The notes under the pieces were generated by a model, which made no database searches, was not told the origin of the DNA, and was given only the letters and a program-made list of their open reading frames with translations. This document shows positions 27,811 through 36,452 of a DNA stretch of 64,000 bases, one piece after another. The DNA is from a virus (lineage: Duplodnaviria > Heunggongvirae > Uroviricota > Caudoviricetes): the IMG/VR virus record IMGVR_UViG_3300045988_024527, positions 1 to 64,000 of that record. One strand, given 5' to 3'. The translations under genes and the position numbers were made by a program. Numbering within the stretch: the stretch's first letter is position 1; the number at the start of each line of letters is the position of its first letter.

Positions 27811-28178
27811 AGTGGCTAGAGGAAGCTTTTAAAAATAATATTGGTGCAATTGTAGTTGGTATTTTTAGTGTTATTGGTATGTATACCACCATGCAAGTCT
27901 CGGATGGTAAGCAAGAAGTGTCTATCACAACAAAGTTACAGCAGTTAGATAATTATTCCAAAAGTAATTATTCAGCTATTCGTGATTTACAGTCTGATAT
28001 GAGGCTGCTTCAGCTAGGGATGGAGAACCAGAAAGTTCAGTTAGAGAATGTTAAGGGTGAGAACGCAAAACTTACCAAAACTCTTGATAAATTCTCTGAC
28101 AGCGTGAACAATTTGGCTCAATCAGTATCAGCCTTGCAAGCTATTACTGAAAAGAACACAAAGAATACTGAAAAGTAA
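27807..28178 (+). CDS. membrane-anchored coiled-coil protein
   Basis: 123 aa; TM segment IGAIVVGIFSVIGMYTT followed by coiled coil; ATGA-coupled to upstream ORF. Confidence 0.3.
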   Translation: MKWLEEAFKNNIGAIVVGIFSVIGMYTTMQVSDGKQEVSITTKLQQLDNYSKSNYSAIRDLQSDMRLLQLGMENQKVQLENVKGENAKLTKTLDKFSDSVNNLAQSVSALQAITEKNTKNTEK

Positions 28179-28184
28179 GATTTA

Positions 28185-28206
28185 AGGCTCCTTTTTACGG
28201 GAGCCT
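28185..28206. terminator. bidirectional terminator between convergent gene blocks
   Basis: Stem aggctcc/ggagcct with T-run after on + strand and A-rich loop for - strand. Confidence 0.6.
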
Positions 28207-28213
28207 TTTTGTT

Positions 28214-29113
28214 TTATTTACCTACTGACAGAGGTGCTTCAATCTTTCCTGCATGTTGGTAGTTATTAATTCCACCAATAAAGTCACTTGCAGTGAGATG
28301 TTTTAAGTCACTTAAAGTGTTAAGTGGGATACCAATCTCAAAAGTAGGTGCATGGAACTCTTCATTGTTCATCAGTTCATAAACCTGCTTCATGTGGTTC
28401 TGATAAATCTGAGTATCTCCAAAGACACCTATCAAGTATCGTGGAGTGTATCCAGTCATCTTACAAAGAACTTCCAGAATAAAACCATAAGATGCAATGT
28501 TAAACGGAAGTCCTAAAAAGGTGTCTACAGAACGCTGATACCATTGCAAATCTACTTCACCTTCGTTGGTGATATAAATCTGAAACAGAACATGACAAGG
28601 TGCTAAAGCCATCGAGTTTGCTGCAATATCTGCTGCATTCCAAGCATTAACAAGCATGTAACGGTCTGTAATATCACCCTTCATCTTCGTTACTAAGGTC
28701 TCTAGCTGGTCTACAACACAACCATTATGACCTTCAAAGTTTCTCCACTGAACCCCGTAGATTCTCCCACCTGCATCCTCTAACCAGTCTTGCTCAGAAG
28801 AATAGTTAGAGCTTAACCAGCGTTTAAAGTCATCTGACCAGATAGTCCAGCGTTCTCCATCATTTTCACCCCAAGTACGGTAACGGAGTTCGCCAAGTTT
28901 ATTCTCACCATTCAGGAACCATAAAGCTTCCCCAATAACTTGCCGTGTAAACACCTGTTTAGATGTTAAGAGCGGGAAACCAGTTCGCATATCAAAACGA
29001 AACTTAGGTGGAGCAAATGTAGAGATAACATCTCCAGTTCGTGTAGTACGCAGTTCACCGACTGATAAAACATAGTTCAGGATATTTTTATAACTTGAAT
29101 CTGCTTGTGACAT
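28214..29113 (-). CDS. thyA: thymidylate synthase
   Basis: LAPCHVLFQIYITNEGEVDLQWYQRSVDTFLGLPFNIASYGFIL matches ThyA active-site region. Confidence 0.85.
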   Translation of the reverse strand: MSQADSSYKNILNYVLSVGELRTTRTGDVISTFAPPKFRFDMRTGFPLLTSKQVFTRQVIGEALWFLNGENKLGELRYRTWGENDGERWTIWSDDFKRWLSSNYSSEQDWLEDAGGRIYGVQWRNFEGHNGCVVDQLETLVTKMKGDITDRYMLVNAWNAADIAANSMALAPCHVLFQIYITNEGEVDLQWYQRSVDTFLGLPFNIASYGFILEVLCKMTGYTPRYLIGVFGDTQIYQNHMKQVYELMNNEEFHAPTFEIGIPLNTLSDLKHLTASDFIGGINNYQHAGKIEAPLSVGK

Positions 29114-29114
29114 A

Positions 29115-29660
29115 TCAAAAGTGTCCTTTTACTTGTGGAACATAAATCTCAAAGGTTGCTTTACCATCATCTGAGGGTCTTGACTGCACCTTTGCAAATA
29201 CACGGCTATCATACAGTTTATCGAAGAAGTTTTCAAAAGGTAAATACACAGTGGCCTCTTCAGTAACCTTATGGAAAACTGTATGGAAAACTACACCAGC
29301 ATACGGCAAAGCATCGACAAGAACACCTGCACCACCAATTACAAAGACATCTTCATCAATAGAGCTATCAAGATACTTCAAAAATGCTCCAAATGACTCT
29401 TTACTGGCTTTAGCATACATTACATCATCTTTGCCAAAGTCTATGCCTAAGTATGGTACAGAGTTTGTTAAGACGAGGTTTGTACGTTCTGGTAAAGGTT
29501 TACTACCCAGAGTCTTAAAAGTTTCATTACCCATCACTACTAAGTTGCCTTTAGTAAGTCTCTTAAACTCTTGCATATCCTGTTTATGTCGAGGCCACGG
29601 CATACCAGTCGGTGTACCAAATTCACCGTTTTCACCACTTGCAAATATTAGTTTAATCAT
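29115..29660 (-). CDS. dihydrofolate reductase
   Basis: MIKLIFASGENGEFGTPTGMPWPRHKQDMQEFKRLTKGNLVVMGNETF is a typical DHFR N-terminus; adjacent to thyA. Confidence 0.8.
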   Translation of the reverse strand: MIKLIFASGENGEFGTPTGMPWPRHKQDMQEFKRLTKGNLVVMGNETFKTLGSKPLPERTNLVLTNSVPYLGIDFGKDDVMYAKASKESFGAFLKYLDSSIDEDVFVIGGAGVLVDALPYAGVVFHTVFHKVTEEATVYLPFENFFDKLYDSRVFAKVQSRPSDDGKATFEIYVPQVKGHF

Positions 29661-29917
29661 TTTGTAAACCCTTTCTTAATGAACCAGTTAATGACACTCT
29701 TCACAACTTTACTACGATGGTAGATAAAATGTGGAGATGGTTGGTATGAACCATAAGCCCAGAAAGCAATGATTTCATTACACCCTGTGCATCGGGTACT
29801 TTCTTCAGCAATATGACCGTTGACTATTTCACTTACCTCACCTTGTAAGTCTGTACACCCACAATGTGGACAACGGATAGGTGTTCCATCAGACTCATAG
29901 CAGTGTTCAATTTTCAT
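29657..29917 (-). CDS. hypothetical zinc-ribbon protein
   Basis: CPHCGC ... CTGC cysteine pairs. Confidence 0.4.
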   Translation of the reverse strand: MKIEHCYESDGTPIRCPHCGCTDLQGEVSEIVNGHIAEESTRCTGCNEIIAFWAYGSYQPSPHFIYHRSKVVKSVINWFIKKGFTK

Positions 29918-30433
29918 CTATTTAACCTCAAAAACTGGCTCAAGAACCAATATAAAGTCTACACAGTCATCTTCTTCATCCAGAATACCATCAAAGTTCT
30001 TAGGAACGAAGTCGAAGAGGCTCATAACAAAACAGTCAGAAGTGACCCTGATAGTTCCTCCCATATTCTCTACAGTCAACACTGTACGACTTTCTTTCAC
30101 CTCCCTCAGAAGATTACCCACAAAGTCATCTAAGAAGTACTTCATCAATGACTTAAAACCTTTAGGGTAATCTGTACCAGAGTATGTTTCAATCTGAGGT
30201 ACAAGCTTAACATTTATACTAGTCTTTGTTAAGAACGTTTTAGAGAACATACTATCAGGTAGCTTACAAACAGTCTTTCCAGTACCTTCATGTTCAATCT
30301 CAACAAAACCAGCTTCGTCGCCACATGTAACTATTTTAAAAGATGCTTCATTCTCATACTGTGAAGTCATAAACTTTTTAAGCATCTCTTTAAGGAAATC
30401 TGCATGAGCATCTTGTAAGTAGATATCAATCAT
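29918..30433 (-). CDS. hypothetical protein (171 aa)
   Basis: ORF track. Confidence 0.4.
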   Translation of the reverse strand: MIDIYLQDAHADFLKEMLKKFMTSQYENEASFKIVTCGDEAGFVEIEHEGTGKTVCKLPDSMFSKTFLTKTSINVKLVPQIETYSGTDYPKGFKSLMKYFLDDFVGNLLREVKESRTVLTVENMGGTIRVTSDCFVMSLFDFVPKNFDGILDEEDDCVDFILVLEPVFEVK

Positions 30434-30446
30434 AGTTAATCACCTA

Positions 30447-30806
30447 TTATGGGAACAAGCACTTAATGTCATCGTTTTTGAAAACAAAACTTGTGTAGTT
30501 GTGACCATCAACATCCAACCAAACAGCCTGAACATCCACACCATCAAGATTCTGGTAAAGCTCTTTGATGAAGTGGTCTTTCACACTCTGACTACTGGTT
30601 GTTTCCAGTTTAATGTTCGAGATTGCTGAACCTACAGCCATGTAGCCCATGACACGTTTCTTCTCAGTATGCTTAATCTTACCATCTTTGTAAGCCATAA
30701 TGAGATTGGAAAGAATCTTTACACCATAATACTTTTCAAGGTGAGTAGGTACACCATAAAAACCTAATGCGAAGTTTTCAGAGTGGATAATGTTTTCACG
30801 TTTCAT
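30447..30806 (-). CDS. hypothetical protein (119 aa)
   Basis: ORF track. Confidence 0.4.
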   Translation of the reverse strand: MKRENIIHSENFALGFYGVPTHLEKYYGVKILSNLIMAYKDGKIKHTEKKRVMGYMAVGSAISNIKLETTSSQSVKDHFIKELYQNLDGVDVQAVWLDVDGHNYTSFVFKNDDIKCLFP

Positions 30807-30807
30807 A

Positions 30808-31137
30808 TTAATCTGCCAACCTTAAATTAAAATTAACACCAAATTTTTCACATACTTCCAACATATACTCAAGGGAAACATTCCCAGTGAGGTGGATTAT
30901 GTTGGATACACGAGCCTGAGAGATACCACAAATTTTAGCAACTTGCTCTTGAGAAAGACCTCTGGATTTAATCTCTCTCTTAAAACGATGTGCAACGAAG
31001 TCTCTCATTTCGTCTACATCCATTGGACAAATATAACTCTCCATTTCAGCCTCTCTGTCAGCCTCCCAATCATCTTGTGGGGCATAAGGGTCAAAAACCT
31101 CATTCATCTTTCTTCTTCCGTTTGCGTGAAGTGTCAA
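30808..31137 (-). CDS. XRE-family helix-turn-helix protein
   Basis: C-terminal GLSQEQVAKICGISQARVSNIIHLTGNVSLEYMLEVCEKFG is a Cro/C1-type HTH; acidic N-terminal extension. Confidence 0.6.
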   Translation of the reverse strand: MTLHANGRRKMNEVFDPYAPQDDWEADREAEMESYICPMDVDEMRDFVAHRFKREIKSRGLSQEQVAKICGISQARVSNIIHLTGNVSLEYMLEVCEKFGVNFNLRLAD

Positions 31138-31312
31138 TCAATGAATCTATGTTTGTAGCCCTAACCTTTTCACGTTCATCATTAAGATAATCATCAAGAG
31201 CCTTTTCAATCTGTGAATCATCTTGACAGATGACTGTAAAGACTGTAAAGCCGTCTGTATCATCAATTATCTTACCATAACCGCTTCTGGGATGTAACTT
31301 TTTAAGAGCCAT
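31100..31312 (-). CDS. hypothetical small basic protein overlapping the HTH gene
   Basis: 70 aa ORF whose 3' end overlaps the start of the HTH gene. Confidence 0.35.
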   Translation of the reverse strand: MALKKLHPRSGYGKIIDDTDGFTVFTVICQDDSQIEKALDDYLNDEREKVRATNIDSLIDTSRKRKKKDE

Positions 31313-31313
31313 A

Positions 31314-31697
31314 TCAAATACCTGTGCAGCTTCTGTTTTCTAAGAAATACTCAACACCATACATAGCTTTTTGCATCAAATCTTCTTTAAACTGGATACG
31401 GTGGTTGAGCATCGCCTGTACATCAATATCGTCATGGTGTTTCTCTTTAATGTTTGCAGATTGCAGGAAATACTCTGCAAGAACACGATACTGATAGTCA
31501 GTTACCTTATCAGTCATCTCTGTCAAAGATTCTTCAGAGATTGGTTTAAGTAACTCGCCTTTAGATAGCGCAACACCTTTTACAATCTGGCAAGTATCTT
31601 CTGGAACACCTGATAAGTCCACATTTGGGAGTTCTGTTGCATTGACTGGTAAATTCATTGCCATAACCATTGCAGCAGCTAATAAAATCTTTTTCAT
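31314..31697 (-). CDS. secreted/periplasmic protein with signal peptide
   Basis: N-terminus MKKILLAAAMVMAMNLPVNA is a typical Sec signal peptide; mature part unrecognised. Confidence 0.5.
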   Translation of the reverse strand: MKKILLAAAMVMAMNLPVNATELPNVDLSGVPEDTCQIVKGVALSKGELLKPISEESLTEMTDKVTDYQYRVLAEYFLQSANIKEKHHDDIDVQAMLNHRIQFKEDLMQKAMYGVEYFLENRSCTGI

Positions 31698-31744
31698 AAT
31701 GACCTCAAAGTTATATTAAATCTTGTATTACGTTGAGTATAAAA

Positions 31745-31787
31745 ATAAGCTATAACACCTGACTTGTCAACAGATTTTATAGCTTAT
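31745..31787 (-). promoter_or_regulatory. candidate promoter inside 11 bp perfect inverted repeat
   Basis: ataagctataa (31745-31755) and ttatagcttat (31777-31787) flank a 21 bp spacer carrying TTGACA on the - strand; weak TATTTT 17 bp downstream; upstream of gene 31314-31697. Confidence 0.4.
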
Positions 31788-31794
31788 TTGGCAG

Positions 31795-32057
31795 ATTTTT
31801 TATAAGGCTACTGCCATCCTTCCATACCAAGCCCTGCCGAACCGAACCATGCTTTGCCATACCGGACAATACCTGACTAGACATCACTTAAAAATCCTCT
31901 TAGAAGACTCTTAAGTGATGTAATCGAATTTTTATGTAGTTTCGATTAACTACCCATACCAAGCCTAACCTGACCGCACCAAACTTTACAACACCACACC
32001 ATACCTGACCATAACAAACCTCATTAAAAGACCCTGTTTAAAGACCTTTTAAAAAGG
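31795..32057 (-). repeat. modular intergenic repeat block A (CA-rich segments plus hairpins H1, H3, H2)
   Basis: Shares H1 (31882-31920), H3 (31922-31953) and H2 (32021-32057) with block B at 33221-33460, modules in different order. Confidence 0.6.
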
Positions 32058-32073
32058 AGCCTCCGAAGAGGCT
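32046..32073 (-). terminator. rho-independent terminator (- strand)
   Basis: Stem agcctc/gaggct with loop cgaa; on the - strand followed by ccttttt. Confidence 0.5.
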
Positions 32074-32084
32074 ACCTAGTCAAC

Positions 32085-32525
32085 TTAGAAAGGTTTTCTA
32101 CGTTGCTTGTTAATGTTAGCTTTCATAGCAGCTAAATGGTTTTGCTGTTCAATCAGTCGTGAACGTTCTTGATGACTAAGTGCCATAGTGTTCACATTCT
32201 CAATTGCTTGAGTGGCTTGTTTTAAAGCACGACCAATCTTACCAGACATTTTACGTTTTGCAATAGTTGCTTGATGTTTAGGTTCAACCACACGATAACC
32301 AACACCCATTGAAGCAACCAGATAAATCTTCTCTTCTTTAAGAAGTTTCTCAATAAACTTCTCAAGTCGGTTTAGACGTGTAAGTGCATAAGCCTTCATT
32401 TCATCTTCGTACTTAACAATGTCACCTTGATAAGTTGGCTTCACAATACCTAAGAAGGTGTCCATCTCAGAATGTGATACAGTGTCACCGTAACTAAACT
32501 TTGCTGCTAATGCTTTTGTATTCAT
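32085..32525 (-). CDS. hypothetical protein (146 aa), repeat-flanked cassette gene 2
   Basis: ORF track; basic C-terminus; no recognised motif. Confidence 0.5.
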   Translation of the reverse strand: MNTKALAAKFSYGDTVSHSEMDTFLGIVKPTYQGDIVKYEDEMKAYALTRLNRLEKFIEKLLKEEKIYLVASMGVGYRVVEPKHQATIAKRKMSGKIGRALKQATQAIENVNTMALSHQERSRLIEQQNHLAAMKANINKQRRKPF

Positions 32526-32527
32526 AA

Positions 32528-33133
<606 letters not shown>

Positions 33134-33220
33134 TTAGTTGATTGTTAAGTTGTTTGTAAAGAACCCTCAACAGAAGACTCTTTAGAAACTTGGTAGATTT
33201 TTAATGTGGCTACTACCATC

Positions 33221-33460
33221 CACCCATACCAGACCTAACTACACCTCACCCCACCTGACCCATACCTCGCATTACCATACCAAACCAGACCCCACCTCAT
33301 TAAAAGACCCTCTTAAAGACCTTTTAAAAAGGTAAGTCTCATTTTAATGTAGCTGAGACTAACTACCCACACCAAACCATAGCATACATCGCATTACCGG
33401 ACAGAACCATACTTTACCAGACATCACTTAAAAACCCTCTTAGAAGACTCTTAAGTGATG
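33221..33460 (-). repeat. modular intergenic repeat block B (CA-rich segments plus hairpins H2, H3, H1)
   Basis: H2 33298-33332, H3 33335-33366, H1 33422-33460; a further hairpin ggtgagta/tactcacc at 33463-33504. Confidence 0.6.
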
Positions 33461-33525
33461 CTGGTGAGTACCCGTTGGTTTATGCTGCTCAGTATACTCA
33501 CCAAATTTTCTATGTCAACAACTTT

Positions 33526-34662
33526 TTATTCGTAATCCCTAATAACTAGTCCAACAGGAAACTGTAAAGAACCCTTACGAGTCATCTTCTGGAACTGAAC
33601 AGTTAGAGGTTTCCCGATAAACTCTTCAGGATGTTCAGCAAGATACTGTTTCTTCTCATGAGTGGTCTTCCATGAGACATCTACAAAGACGTTAGGAAGA
33701 GTCTCTACAACGAACTTGCCATGACCACGTTTATCGGTCTTTACACCAGTAACTTTAAACTCTTCAGTGTGCATCTTCTTATGCTTAATCAAGAAGTATG
33801 AACGGTGACCACACTCGTAGAAAGATTCTTCAGAGATTGAGCGGTACATTGCACCTTCAAACTTAGCTTCAACCCACTTATCATGGGCTTCATCAAATTC
33901 TTCCCAAGAATTTACACGGATAGTCTGTACAGGAACCACTCGACAGGTATCCCCAAGCTCAACAATAGGTGAACTATCAATAACTTCACGACGCTCAGGC
34001 CAAGATTTTGAATTGTCACAGATATCATACCAGTAGAATTTAAGAAGGTGACGGTCTGGATTGTCAGCATTCTTAATCATAGATACAATATCTTCTAAGT
34101 CCCAACCATGAGCATAAATCTCGCCATCAAAGTCTTCAACTTGCGGGTGTAATTTAAGCAACAAAAGCAAATCTGGGATTAGTTCTGCTGGAACGTTGTA
34201 AACAGTATTCTCACGAGAATAAGCCGTAAAACTAACTGAATCAACATCTCTTGAAATTCTACAACGTACACCATCCAGTTTTGGTTGAGCATCAGCAGGA
34301 AATATCAAATACTTTGCATGACTAACCTTTGCAGCATCATGAGCAAGCTGTACACCTACCTTCTCAGTATTCTGTGCAGACTCTTTTGTGTAAGCATAAC
34401 CTTTACGGTCAACTTGCTTTTTATACTTAGCAGCAACTTCAAAGAGAGCTTGCTGTTCAGCATTACGCTCATTCTTTTTACCGATGTTTTTAGGTTCTGC
34501 TGTATACTCTTCAAACATCATCTTGCCATTTTCTTTACCGTAGGTTGTAATAACTTTGTTACCTATAGCACCACATGACCAGATGTTGAAGGAACCGTCT
34601 TTATTTTGTTTGTACAGTGTTGTCATTTTTAACCTCTGAGTGATACCAAGTATTGCAAGCAT
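33526..34662 (-). CDS. ATP-dependent DNA ligase
   Basis: Adenylation motif I AQPKLDGVRCRI (KxDG); 378 aa. Confidence 0.8.
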   Translation of the reverse strand: MLAILGITQRLKMTTLYKQNKDGSFNIWSCGAIGNKVITTYGKENGKMMFEEYTAEPKNIGKKNERNAEQQALFEVAAKYKKQVDRKGYAYTKESAQNTEKVGVQLAHDAAKVSHAKYLIFPADAQPKLDGVRCRISRDVDSVSFTAYSRENTVYNVPAELIPDLLLLLKLHPQVEDFDGEIYAHGWDLEDIVSMIKNADNPDRHLLKFYWYDICDNSKSWPERREVIDSSPIVELGDTCRVVPVQTIRVNSWEEFDEAHDKWVEAKFEGAMYRSISEESFYECGHRSYFLIKHKKMHTEEFKVTGVKTDKRGHGKFVVETLPNVFVDVSWKTTHEKKQYLAEHPEEFIGKPLTVQFQKMTRKGSLQFPVGLVIRDYE

Positions 34663-35867: not shown

Positions 35868-35918
35868 AAGCCCTCCTATACAAGATATAGTATAAGGTAC
35901 TCTTCCCTGAGCACCTTG

Positions 35919-36452
35919 TCAACTTAGTTTTGCAAACTCTCCGTGGAGTTTAATAGCAGCTTCACAGTAAGCTTTATAGGCTTCTTCAGGTGTGTCATGG
36001 TGACCTAAAAACATCTTCTTACCTTTATAACTTATCTGTGCGACCCACTTACCGGACTTCTTCTTAAGACTTACACCCTTGTACCCAGATTTATTGGTGA
36101 CTGGTTTACCTTTATTCCAAGCACTTTGAAAATCATCTGCTTCCCTTAAGTTTACAATCCTGTTGTCAAGCGAGTCTCCGTTGATATGGTCAATGATACC
36201 TTTTGGCATCTTGCCATACACGTAAAGCCATGCGAGTCTGTGTGCTTTATGTGCTTTCTTGTCAAAATAGATACTAATCTGTTTATGACCACTTGAATCA
36301 GTCTGGATATTACCTGCCACCTTTCCTGCATAATTACTGTTAAAAACACTAACAGCTCTTGATTTACCTTCTCTACGAAGCCAAGTAAAGACCCCTGTTT
36401 CGGGGTCATAGTGCAGCAGCTCCTTTAAACGTTTTTGTAAAATTAAATCCAT
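35919..36452 (-). CDS. HNH homing endonuclease with AP2-like DNA-binding domain
   Basis: LHYDPETGVFTW ... HRLAWLYVYGKMPKGIIDHINGDSLDNRIVNLR ... SGYKGVSLKKKSGKWVAQISYKGKKMFLGHHDTPEEA; paralogue of 46036-46539 and 59579-60070. Confidence 0.75.
   Translation of the reverse strand: MDLILQKRLKELLHYDPETGVFTWLRREGKSRAVSVFNSNYAGKVAGNIQTDSSGHKQISIYFDKKAHKAHRLAWLYVYGKMPKGIIDHINGDSLDNRIVNLREADDFQSAWNKGKPVTNKSGYKGVSLKKKSGKWVAQISYKGKKMFLGHHDTPEEAYKAYCEAAIKLHGEFAKLS

Follow-up and report, generated by a model that had tools for sequence, protein, structure and literature searches.

The two neighboring genes followed up here, encoding a 70-aa protein and a helix-turn-helix (HTH) protein of the XRE family, are probably best explained as the second and third genes of a conserved middle operon of a Felix O1-type phage, in which a transcriptional regulator and a clade-restricted accessory protein lie side by side without forming an addiction module. 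They are located on the minus strand of a 64,000-nt stretch of a Caudoviricetes genome (IMG/VR record IMGVR_UViG_3300045988_024527, positions 1 to 64,000), which we refer to as the window. The initial annotation had described them either as a toxin–antitoxin-like pair with a HigB/HigA layout or as an early transcriptional regulator with a coupled partner. The coordinates of all features are given in Table 1.

Table 1. Features of the transcription unit that contains the pair, ordered from the upstream hairpin to the end of the unit.
Feature	Position	Strand	Remarks
Terminator-like hairpin upstream of the promoter	32058-32073
19-nt inverted repeat around the -35 hexamer, hairpin or candidate operator	31743..31789	-	Arms 89% complementary
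Sigma-70-like promoter: TTGACA (31770-31765), 17-nt spacer, TATTTT (31747-31742)	31742..31770	-	10/12 consensus positions
5'-UTR motif AATACAAGATTTAATATA (WATAC-N8-DTATA), candidate operator or RNA element	31712..31729	-	Between -10 and ribosome-binding site
First gene of the unit, 127-aa protein, PHROG 4332	31314..31697	-	Stop 1 nt from the 70-aa start
70-aa protein gene, PHROG 4473	31100..31312	-	ORF with ATG; 259 phage records; purifying selection
10-codon extension from TTG, probably untranslated	31108..31137	-	TTG not conserved; without SD-like sequence
8-nt gene overlap ATGAATGA	31100..31107	-	HTH start codon within the last codons and stop of the 70-aa gene
99-aa XRE/Cro-C1 HTH regulator gene	30808..31107	-	HTH_3 and HTH_37 above cut-offs; PHROG 1373; conserved ATG
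Fourth gene of the unit, 119-aa protein, PHROG 4116	30447..30806	-	Start 1 nt after the HTH stop
171-aa and 86-aa proteins (function unknown), dihydrofolate reductase, thymidylate synthase	28214..30433	-	Remainder of the unit
Hairpin after the thymidylate synthase gene	28184-28207	Reported on +	Corresponds to Felix O1 terminator t80

A 2.2-kb stretch around the pair shares 94–97% identity with many Felixounavirus genomes, with Escherichia phage vB_EcoM-VpaE1 as the best match (96% identity over 100% of the query). Judged by this nucleotide identity, the window is the genome of a Felixounavirus, i.e., a Felix O1-type virulent myovirus. Both genes are annotated in VpaE1 and in Felix O1, where ORF87 and ORF84 flank them on the strand ending in frd and td. 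The 70-aa gene corresponds to Felix O1 ORF86 (Felix01p158, “hypothetical protein”) and to agp036 of phage SUSP1, the HTH gene to ORF85 (Felix01p155, “transcriptional regulator”) and to agp035. Genes, order, and neighbors are the same as in the window, with no biological difference, and many Felixounavirus records encode proteins that are 100% identical. Using tblastn, 263 phage records were matched by the 70-aa protein (259 of them over most of the query) and 261 by the HTH protein; these belong to Felixounavirus, Mooglevirus, and Suspvirus phages of Escherichia, Salmonella, Shigella, and Citrobacter. The pair is already known, being catalogued in more than 250 phage genomes and represented by PHROG families, and comprises ordinary core-accessory genes, namely those of a small XRE regulator and of a 70-aa orphan protein in a long middle operon. 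We found no functional study of ORF85 or ORF86 in the literature, the relevant sources being the Felix O1 genome paper and the SUSP1 knockdown screen.

The transcription unit extends from the promoter at 31770 over eight genes, which encode, in this order, the 127-aa protein, the 70-aa protein, the HTH protein, the 119-aa, 171-aa, and 86-aa proteins, dihydrofolate reductase (DHFR), and thymidylate synthase; the pair thus occupies positions two and three. A hairpin homologous to the one that follows the thymidylate synthase gene is terminator t80 in Felix O1 (PMC3185647, Table 2), and no other terminator-like site was found on the minus strand between the hairpin upstream of the promoter and td. 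The HTH protein is the sole regulator found in the operon. The 127-aa protein has two cysteines that are conserved in six of six homologs compared, and its N-terminal sequence MKKILLAAAMVMAMNLPVNA resembles a signal peptide, from which we infer that it carries one. The junctions on either side of the pair (127-aa/70-aa and HTH/119-aa) have spacers of 1 nt, which makes tight coupling a general feature of the operon and nothing special to the two genes. From the 127-aa gene to td, Mooglevirus, Suspvirus, and metagenomic relatives have the same gene order, and protein searches detected neither gene outside this syntenic clade. Regarding expression, RT-PCR in Felix O1 placed the peak of ORFs 83, 84, 87, and 88 at 25 min and that of ORF81 at 10 min, in a table that does not list ORFs 85 and 86 (PMC3185647, Table 3). 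With the flanking ORFs 83, 84, and 87 peaking at 25 min, the timing of the pair looks middle and not early, as had been proposed.

The HTH gene is commonly annotated with a TTG start at 31137, giving a product of 109 aa, and this start is probably wrong. In related phages, the TTG is replaced by TCG (Mooglevirus Sf13) or by the in-frame stop codon TAG (3HA14 and Sf14), and no SD-like sequence was seen 5' of it. Every relative compared retains the ATG at 31107, together with the purine-rich stretch that precedes it. Because the TTG is unconserved and the ATG conserved, we take the ATG as the true start, with a probable product of 99 aa. This is the length found in Mooglevirus and Suspvirus records and in metagenomic gene calls, while the relative L006 encodes 97 aa. 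The 10-codon extension is annotated in many Felixounavirus records. Of the 109-aa ORF initially reported at 30808-31137 on the minus strand, the C-terminal Cro/C1-type HTH therefore stands, and the TTG start does not. Likewise, the overlap with the 70-aa gene is real, but given the ATG at 31107 it measures 8 nt instead of 38 nt. It is identical in all relatives compared except L006, whose two genes are 1 nt apart. A programmed frameshift fusing both ORFs was considered and rejected, as the HTH gene lies in the +1 frame, the -1 frame meets a TGA at once, and L006 lacks the overlap.

The identity of the HTH protein as an XRE-family DNA-binding regulator is well supported by its family assignment and its predicted fold. 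Pfam HTH_3 (PF01381) matched residues 43-93 of the 99-aa form (E 4.9e-10; 39.7 bits at a cut-off of 23), HTH_37 (PF13744) scored 28.2 bits at a cut-off of 27, and the protein matched phrog_1373 at E 1.2e-25. In the AlphaFold2 (AF2) model, helices were assigned to residues 31-48, 53-60, 64-72, and 79-89, block-mean pLDDT was 86-91 across residues 31-90, and the HTH domain corresponds to residues 36-99 with a five-helix fold. The top matches of a fold search against the PDB were XRE proteins (probability 1.00, E only 0.006-0.07) of a generic kind, including NE_1354 (2a6c), HipB, C-proteins, HigA2, SinR, and DdrO. With the XRE repressors NE_1354, HipB, the C-proteins that control restriction–modification systems, and the N-terminal domain of SinR, the protein shares the five-helix fold at query-normalized TM-scores of 0.5-0.6, in alignments that span the HTH domain only. 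Across 13 homologs with identities down to 60%, the recognition-helix segment ISQ-x-x-VSNI is invariant except for A/S65 and R/Q66. In contrast to the small XRE repressors, the protein is encoded by a virulent phage and carries a conserved acidic N-terminal extension of 35 residues. Residues 1-35 are very acidic (net charge -10.5) and strongly conserved, with F5, D6, P7, Y8, A9, P10, D12, E15, E21, and M22 being invariant, and belong to the low-confidence part of the monomer model (low-confidence blocks of both proteins had a block-mean pLDDT of 53-66). A search of PDB sequences with the extension returned no match apart from a designed repeat protein. In its conserved and disordered-looking character, the extension could most simply be read as a protein-binding module.

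The 70-aa ORF had been called correctly on the minus strand with its ATG: it is present in the ORF list, and conservation and dN/dS values well below 1 mark it, like the HTH gene, as a real gene. Pairwise dN/dS was about 0.1-0.3 for the whole ORF and 0.03-0.1 over the final 22 codons; synonymous changes were numerous, and by this pattern the ORF is a coding gene under purifying selection. Its product matched phrog_4473 over the full length (E 2.3e-45; function class unknown). The earlier description as a small basic protein does not hold, since the pI is 5.79 and the protein is negatively charged overall (net -1.4); residues 1-48 form an acidic part (pI 4.5), and only residues 49-70 are basic (pI 10.2, charge +3.8). 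These basic residues form a strongly conserved C-terminal helix, VRATNIDSLIDTSRKRKKKDE, while the N-terminal half evolves fast, and metagenomes contain in-frame indel variants of a 9-nt tandem repeat encoding FTVFTV. Relatives from metagenomes whose HTH proteins are down to 60% identical retain an ORF of 63-67 aa directly 5' of the HTH gene.

We also considered whether the conservation of the basic tail could come from the element that overlaps it. The last seven codons, KR(R/K)KKDE, coincide with the SD-like stretch and the start codon of the HTH gene, and even their synonymous positions have changed little. Within VRATN(I/L)DSLIDTS, codons vary freely at synonymous positions; this freedom in the 15 codons upstream of the last seven places the constraint there on the protein. 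The overlapping element can thus account for at most the last seven codons and was rejected as the general cause. In L006, where the genes do not overlap, the basic tail of the 70-aa homolog is truncated.

Searches of Pfam, PADLOC, NCBIfam, PDB sequences, and PHROGs with the 70-aa protein returned only its own PHROG; the best Pfam entry, DUF406 (E 0.017), remained below its cut-off. Among 5.8 billion proteins, a word-indexed search retrieved 11 matches, all of them close relatives with at least 57% identity, and a profile search of 1.84 billion representative proteins recovered one family member and no homolog outside the phage clade. The same profile search produced a weak match to a 2,646-aa protein (E 4.6e-4, 11 stretches), which is probably spurious. 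AF2 predicted a beta-hairpin (residues 13-27) and a long helix (residues 32-69) at low confidence (pLDDT 59), and Foldseek found no structural neighbor of this low-confidence model in the PDB (best E 5.9). Its conservation and distribution mark the 70-aa protein as a true accessory protein that is confined to the Felix O1-type phage clade.

The promoter that had been proposed at 31745-31787 indeed matches a sigma-70-like site (31742-31770); it does not lie directly 5' of the pair, though, but precedes the 127-aa ORF at 31314-31697. The promoter is conserved in VpaE1, Felix O1, L012, and L006. The inverted repeat around its -35 hexamer folds as RNA with -17.8 kcal/mol (z -5.0), and its two exact 12-mer arms occur nowhere else in the window. 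In L006, pairing is preserved by one double change and two G-U pairs. Since the register of the stem differs by 1 nt from phage to phage, repeats were detected and folded for each sequence individually, and alignment-based covariation counts were not used. Mooglevirus, Suspvirus, and their relatives have the homologous operon behind a different promoter, GTTGTTGACA...TATACT, which contains a perfect inverted repeat of 8-13 bp whose arms lie in the promoter spacer and immediately ahead of the SD sequence, respectively. The arms of these repeats differ entirely from phage to phage, and their complementarity is kept. In the window itself, the promoter at 33518, located before other genes, shows the same arrangement as the GTTGTTGACA-type promoters, and the promoter at 35922 has a conserved hairpin in its spacer.

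Candidate operators of the HTH protein are this inverted repeat and the 5'-UTR motif. We do not think that the repeat is the operator, because its arms vary from genus to genus, in contrast to the nearly invariant recognition helix, and because similar arrangements exist at the promoters 33518 and 35922. From their sequences, the promoter repeats look like promoter-embedded stem-loops, as described under the name PeSLs for T4-type phages, in which sigma-70-like promoters lie inside conserved stem-loops at the borders of variable modules (PMC2839356, PMC4122927). This is a resemblance only: the phages here are Ounavirinae, sequences and geometry differ, and the likeness concerns the operon promoter and not the two ORFs. 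The UTR motif WATAC-N8-DTATA is the only non-coding block, besides the hexamers and the SD sequence, that is conserved across both promoter types. It occurs exactly in the 5'-UTR of the 127-aa gene homolog at 9 of 13 related loci, and a second copy in the window (35877-35894), a near-perfect palindrome, lies downstream of the promoter at 35922. Three distinct sites were found at about 0.8 expected, which is suggestive only. The motif is able to form a small A-U hairpin, and an Rfam scan of 28000-34000 revealed nothing near any gathering score. We consider it a weak operator candidate, which could equally be an RNA element.

Taken as genes two and three of the operon, the pair would be transcribed by host RNA polymerase from the promoter at 31770 in the middle phase of infection by a virulent Felix O1-type myovirus. 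The 99-aa XRE protein may act as a repressor in dimeric form and thereby tune transcription of the phage, its own operon probably among the targets, and the conserved basic C-terminal helix would be the functional end of the 70-aa protein. The overlap would reflect tight packing and translational coupling, as at the operon junctions inspected, and not a dedicated two-gene addiction module. Neither gene appears to be needed for growth on a laboratory host, judging from the genome-wide CRISPRi-ART knockdown of SUSP1 in E. coli DH10B. There, agp035 (HTH) scored 0.37 (PMC11879866, supplements 8 and 16), agp036 (70-aa homolog) -0.74, and agp037 (127-aa homolog) -0.76 (PMC11879866), and all three were classed as “Not Fit”, which means without a fitness defect, on a single host and with a false-negative rate that the authors concede (PMC11879866). 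The repressor role, the DNA target, and any link between both proteins are inferred. Further observations stand against this explanation: the promoter repeat resembles the hairpins of other promoters more than a specific operator, and the oppositely charged, low-confidence conserved segments of the two proteins hint at a direct interaction that independent neighbors do not explain. Of the proposed regulator with a coupled partner, family and fold bear out the regulator; the 70-aa protein is a possible partner, and the coupling is generic to the operon.

A partnership of this kind, in which the basic helix of the 70-aa protein would dock on the acidic N-terminus of the HTH protein and act as a co-repressor or anti-repressor that times the operon, is possible though doubtful. 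By analogy, its architecture might be MqsA-like, with a partner-binding N-terminus and a C-terminal XRE domain, but without toxicity, an equally tentative proposal. The most constrained segments of the two proteins, which contain most of the invariant columns, have opposite charges (+3.8 in residues 49-70 of the 70-aa protein vs. -10.5 in residues 1-35 of the HTH protein), and both are of low confidence in the monomer models, as expected for segments that fold on binding. Furthermore, coupling by the overlap is conserved in all lineages but one, and both genes occur in essentially the same phage records. This co-occurrence is uninformative, however, because synteny in the clade extends to the whole operon, and neither gene was found elsewhere for an independent comparison. 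In the L008/L009/L012 lineage, the HTH protein has changed strongly (dN 0.33 vs. Sf14) and the small protein barely (dN 0.08). Finally, the last seven codons of the basic tail double as the ribosome-binding site and start codon of the HTH gene, so its conservation may partly act at the nucleotide level.

An anti-defense or host-takeover operon is a decidedly unlikely alternative. The 127-aa and 70-aa proteins would then be the effectors, and the HTH protein an Aca-like autorepressor that shuts off a strong promoter after the first minutes. In its layout, the unit shares with acr-aca operons, as described in the literature (e.g., PMC9410906, PMC9765179), a short HTH gene directly downstream of small orphan ORFs and a near-consensus promoter that overlaps an inverted repeat. 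The small protein is clade-restricted with a fast-evolving N-terminal half, and both genes of the pair are dispensable on the laboratory strain, as is usual for accessory anti-defense genes. Unlike in acr-aca operons, five more genes follow the HTH gene, and the unit runs on into the housekeeping genes of nucleotide metabolism for DHFR and thymidylate synthase. Moreover, the inverted repeat has the character of a structural hairpin, of a type shared by several promoters of these phages: similar hairpins lie at promoters of other genes (33518 and 35922), and the compensated changes of its arms between genera, set against the nearly invariant recognition helix, argue for a structure rather than an operator. 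No Aca protein was present among the top 50 fold matches of the HTH protein.

The weakest reading, and a very improbable one, is a type II toxin–antitoxin system like HigB/HigA or MqsR/MqsA, in which a toxin gene would precede that of the HTH antitoxin, since family searches, predicted fold, HigA score, lack of autonomy, and absence from E. coli genomes and from plasmids all speak against it. What the pair shares with higBA and mqsRA is the gene order with a small upstream ORF overlapping a downstream XRE-HTH gene and, with MqsA in particular, a C-terminal HTH together with an N-terminal part that could bind a partner. The HTH protein gave weak, sub-threshold matches to the antitoxin models HipB, PezA, and HigA; antidote_HigA (TIGR02607) scored 20.4 bits at a cut-off of 47.7, and the other antitoxin models were also far below theirs. 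Its fold is similar to HipB and HigA2, but this likeness is common to all XRE domains. As the initial annotation had noted, the upstream protein has no recognizable RelE-like residues: searches of Pfam, PADLOC, NCBIfam, and the PDB yielded neither a RelE/ParE signal nor one for any other toxin family. The structure prediction that had been suggested as a check gave no RelE-like fold in the low-confidence model and no structural match. Homologs of the 70-aa protein were confined to the phage clade in the search of representative proteins, and all were located on Ounavirinae-type contigs. Blastn with the 505-nt pair found nothing in 5,426 complete E. coli genomes, and neither did tblastn with the 70-aa protein in 72,556 plasmids. 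In contrast to a stand-alone cassette, the pair has no promoter of its own and lies inside the eight-gene operon of a virulent phage.

As it stands, the finding matters little, with both genes catalogued, assigned to PHROG families, and dispensable in the knockdown of a related phage; novelty is low, and the corrected start codon and the observation on promoter hairpins are useful by-products. It remains unlikely that the pair forms a two-protein switch, in which binding of the basic helix to the acidic extension would modulate DNA binding and time middle transcription, or that it consists of an anti-defense effector under Aca-like control. The practical value lies in the corrected start of a gene that is annotated 10 codons too long in many Felixounavirus records and in the clear rejection of the toxin–antitoxin idea. 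According to the Felix O1 genome paper, the regulation of temporal transcription in this phage is not understood (PMC3185647), and the HTH regulator may serve as a pointer to the temporal program of these therapeutically used phages.

In the gene for the HTH regulator (Felix O1 ORF85), two start sites have been annotated in related phages. Felix O1 and VpaE1 carry a 330-nt version (109 aa, TTG start), as apparently do many further Felixounavirus records, and the Mooglevirus and Suspvirus records carry a 300-nt version (99 aa, ATG start). Comparative evidence favours the 99-aa ATG form; window positions 31108–31137 are the extra stretch of the 330-nt form. Identical copies (100%) of the 70-aa Felixounavirus gene were found in MG065668.1 (Campylobacter phage A126) and GU169904.1 (Staphylococcus phage SA1). 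Both records, one titled after a Campylobacter host and the other after a Staphylococcus host, are likely to be chimeras or contaminated. Within this gene, a 9-nt tandem duplication (TTTACAGTC x2, 31232–31249, minus strand) encodes FTVFTV inside a predicted beta-hairpin. The metagenomic protein variants P0005–P0007 and P0009 have three TTTACAGTC copies or an adjoining duplication, and in one of them an in-frame deletion removes 12 aa; the tandem repeat is a slippage-prone yet tolerated spot.

The first gene of the operon (31314–31697, minus strand) encodes a 127-aa protein of PHROG 4332, whose N-terminus resembles a typical Sec-type signal peptide and whose cysteines at positions 36 and 124 are shared by each of the six homologues compared. 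This phage protein, from a family without an assigned function, probably resides in the periplasm. By CRISPRi-ART knockdown in the Suspvirus SUSP1, its homologue agp037 was classed as 'Not Fit', and agp038, the homologue of the 146-aa gene (see table), as 'Semi-Fit' (PMC11879866). Felix O1 lacks the 146-aa and 200-aa genes at the corresponding position, where a ligase gene lies directly 5' of ORF87. In the window, two copies of a composite module (31780–31925 and 33190–33465) stand on either side of 32085–33130, each comprising a 20-nt inverted repeat (CATCACTTAAGAGTCTTCT/AGAGGnTTTTTAAGTGATG), variable GGT-rich tracts, and GGTATGG..GGATGG.AGTAGCC..A.AAAAATCT.CCAA. The two genes look like a cassette inserted via recombination between repeated regulatory modules.

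Putative cassette genes and promoter stem-loops in the window
Feature	Position	Strand
200-aa gene	32528-33130	
146-aa gene	32085-32525	
Promoter stem-loop	31743-31789	-
Promoter stem-loop	33455-33525	-
Promoter stem-loop	35895-35925	-

The motif WATAC-N8-DTATA(GGA) is common to 31712–31729 and 35877–35894, each just 3' of a different promoter, and is kept at both sites in other genera (e.g., the related loci L002, L006, and L007). The motif may bind a protein, or it may fold as a small A-U hairpin within the 5'-UTR. Stem-loops enclose sigma-70-like promoters of Felix O1-type phages, both in the window and in the related loci L002–L012 upstream of the 127-aa gene homologues. In Mooglevirus, Suspvirus, and their relatives, these are perfect inverted repeats of 8–13 bp, with one arm in the promoter spacer and the other in the stretch just 5' of the SD; the arm sequences differ wholly from phage to phage, with complementarity kept (z −3.4 to −5.7). 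No earlier report of promoter stem-loops in Ounavirinae was found in the literature searched. Those of the window phage and of Mooglevirus, Suspvirus, and relatives resemble the promoter-early stem-loops (PeSL) of T4-type phages (PMC2839356, PMC4122927).
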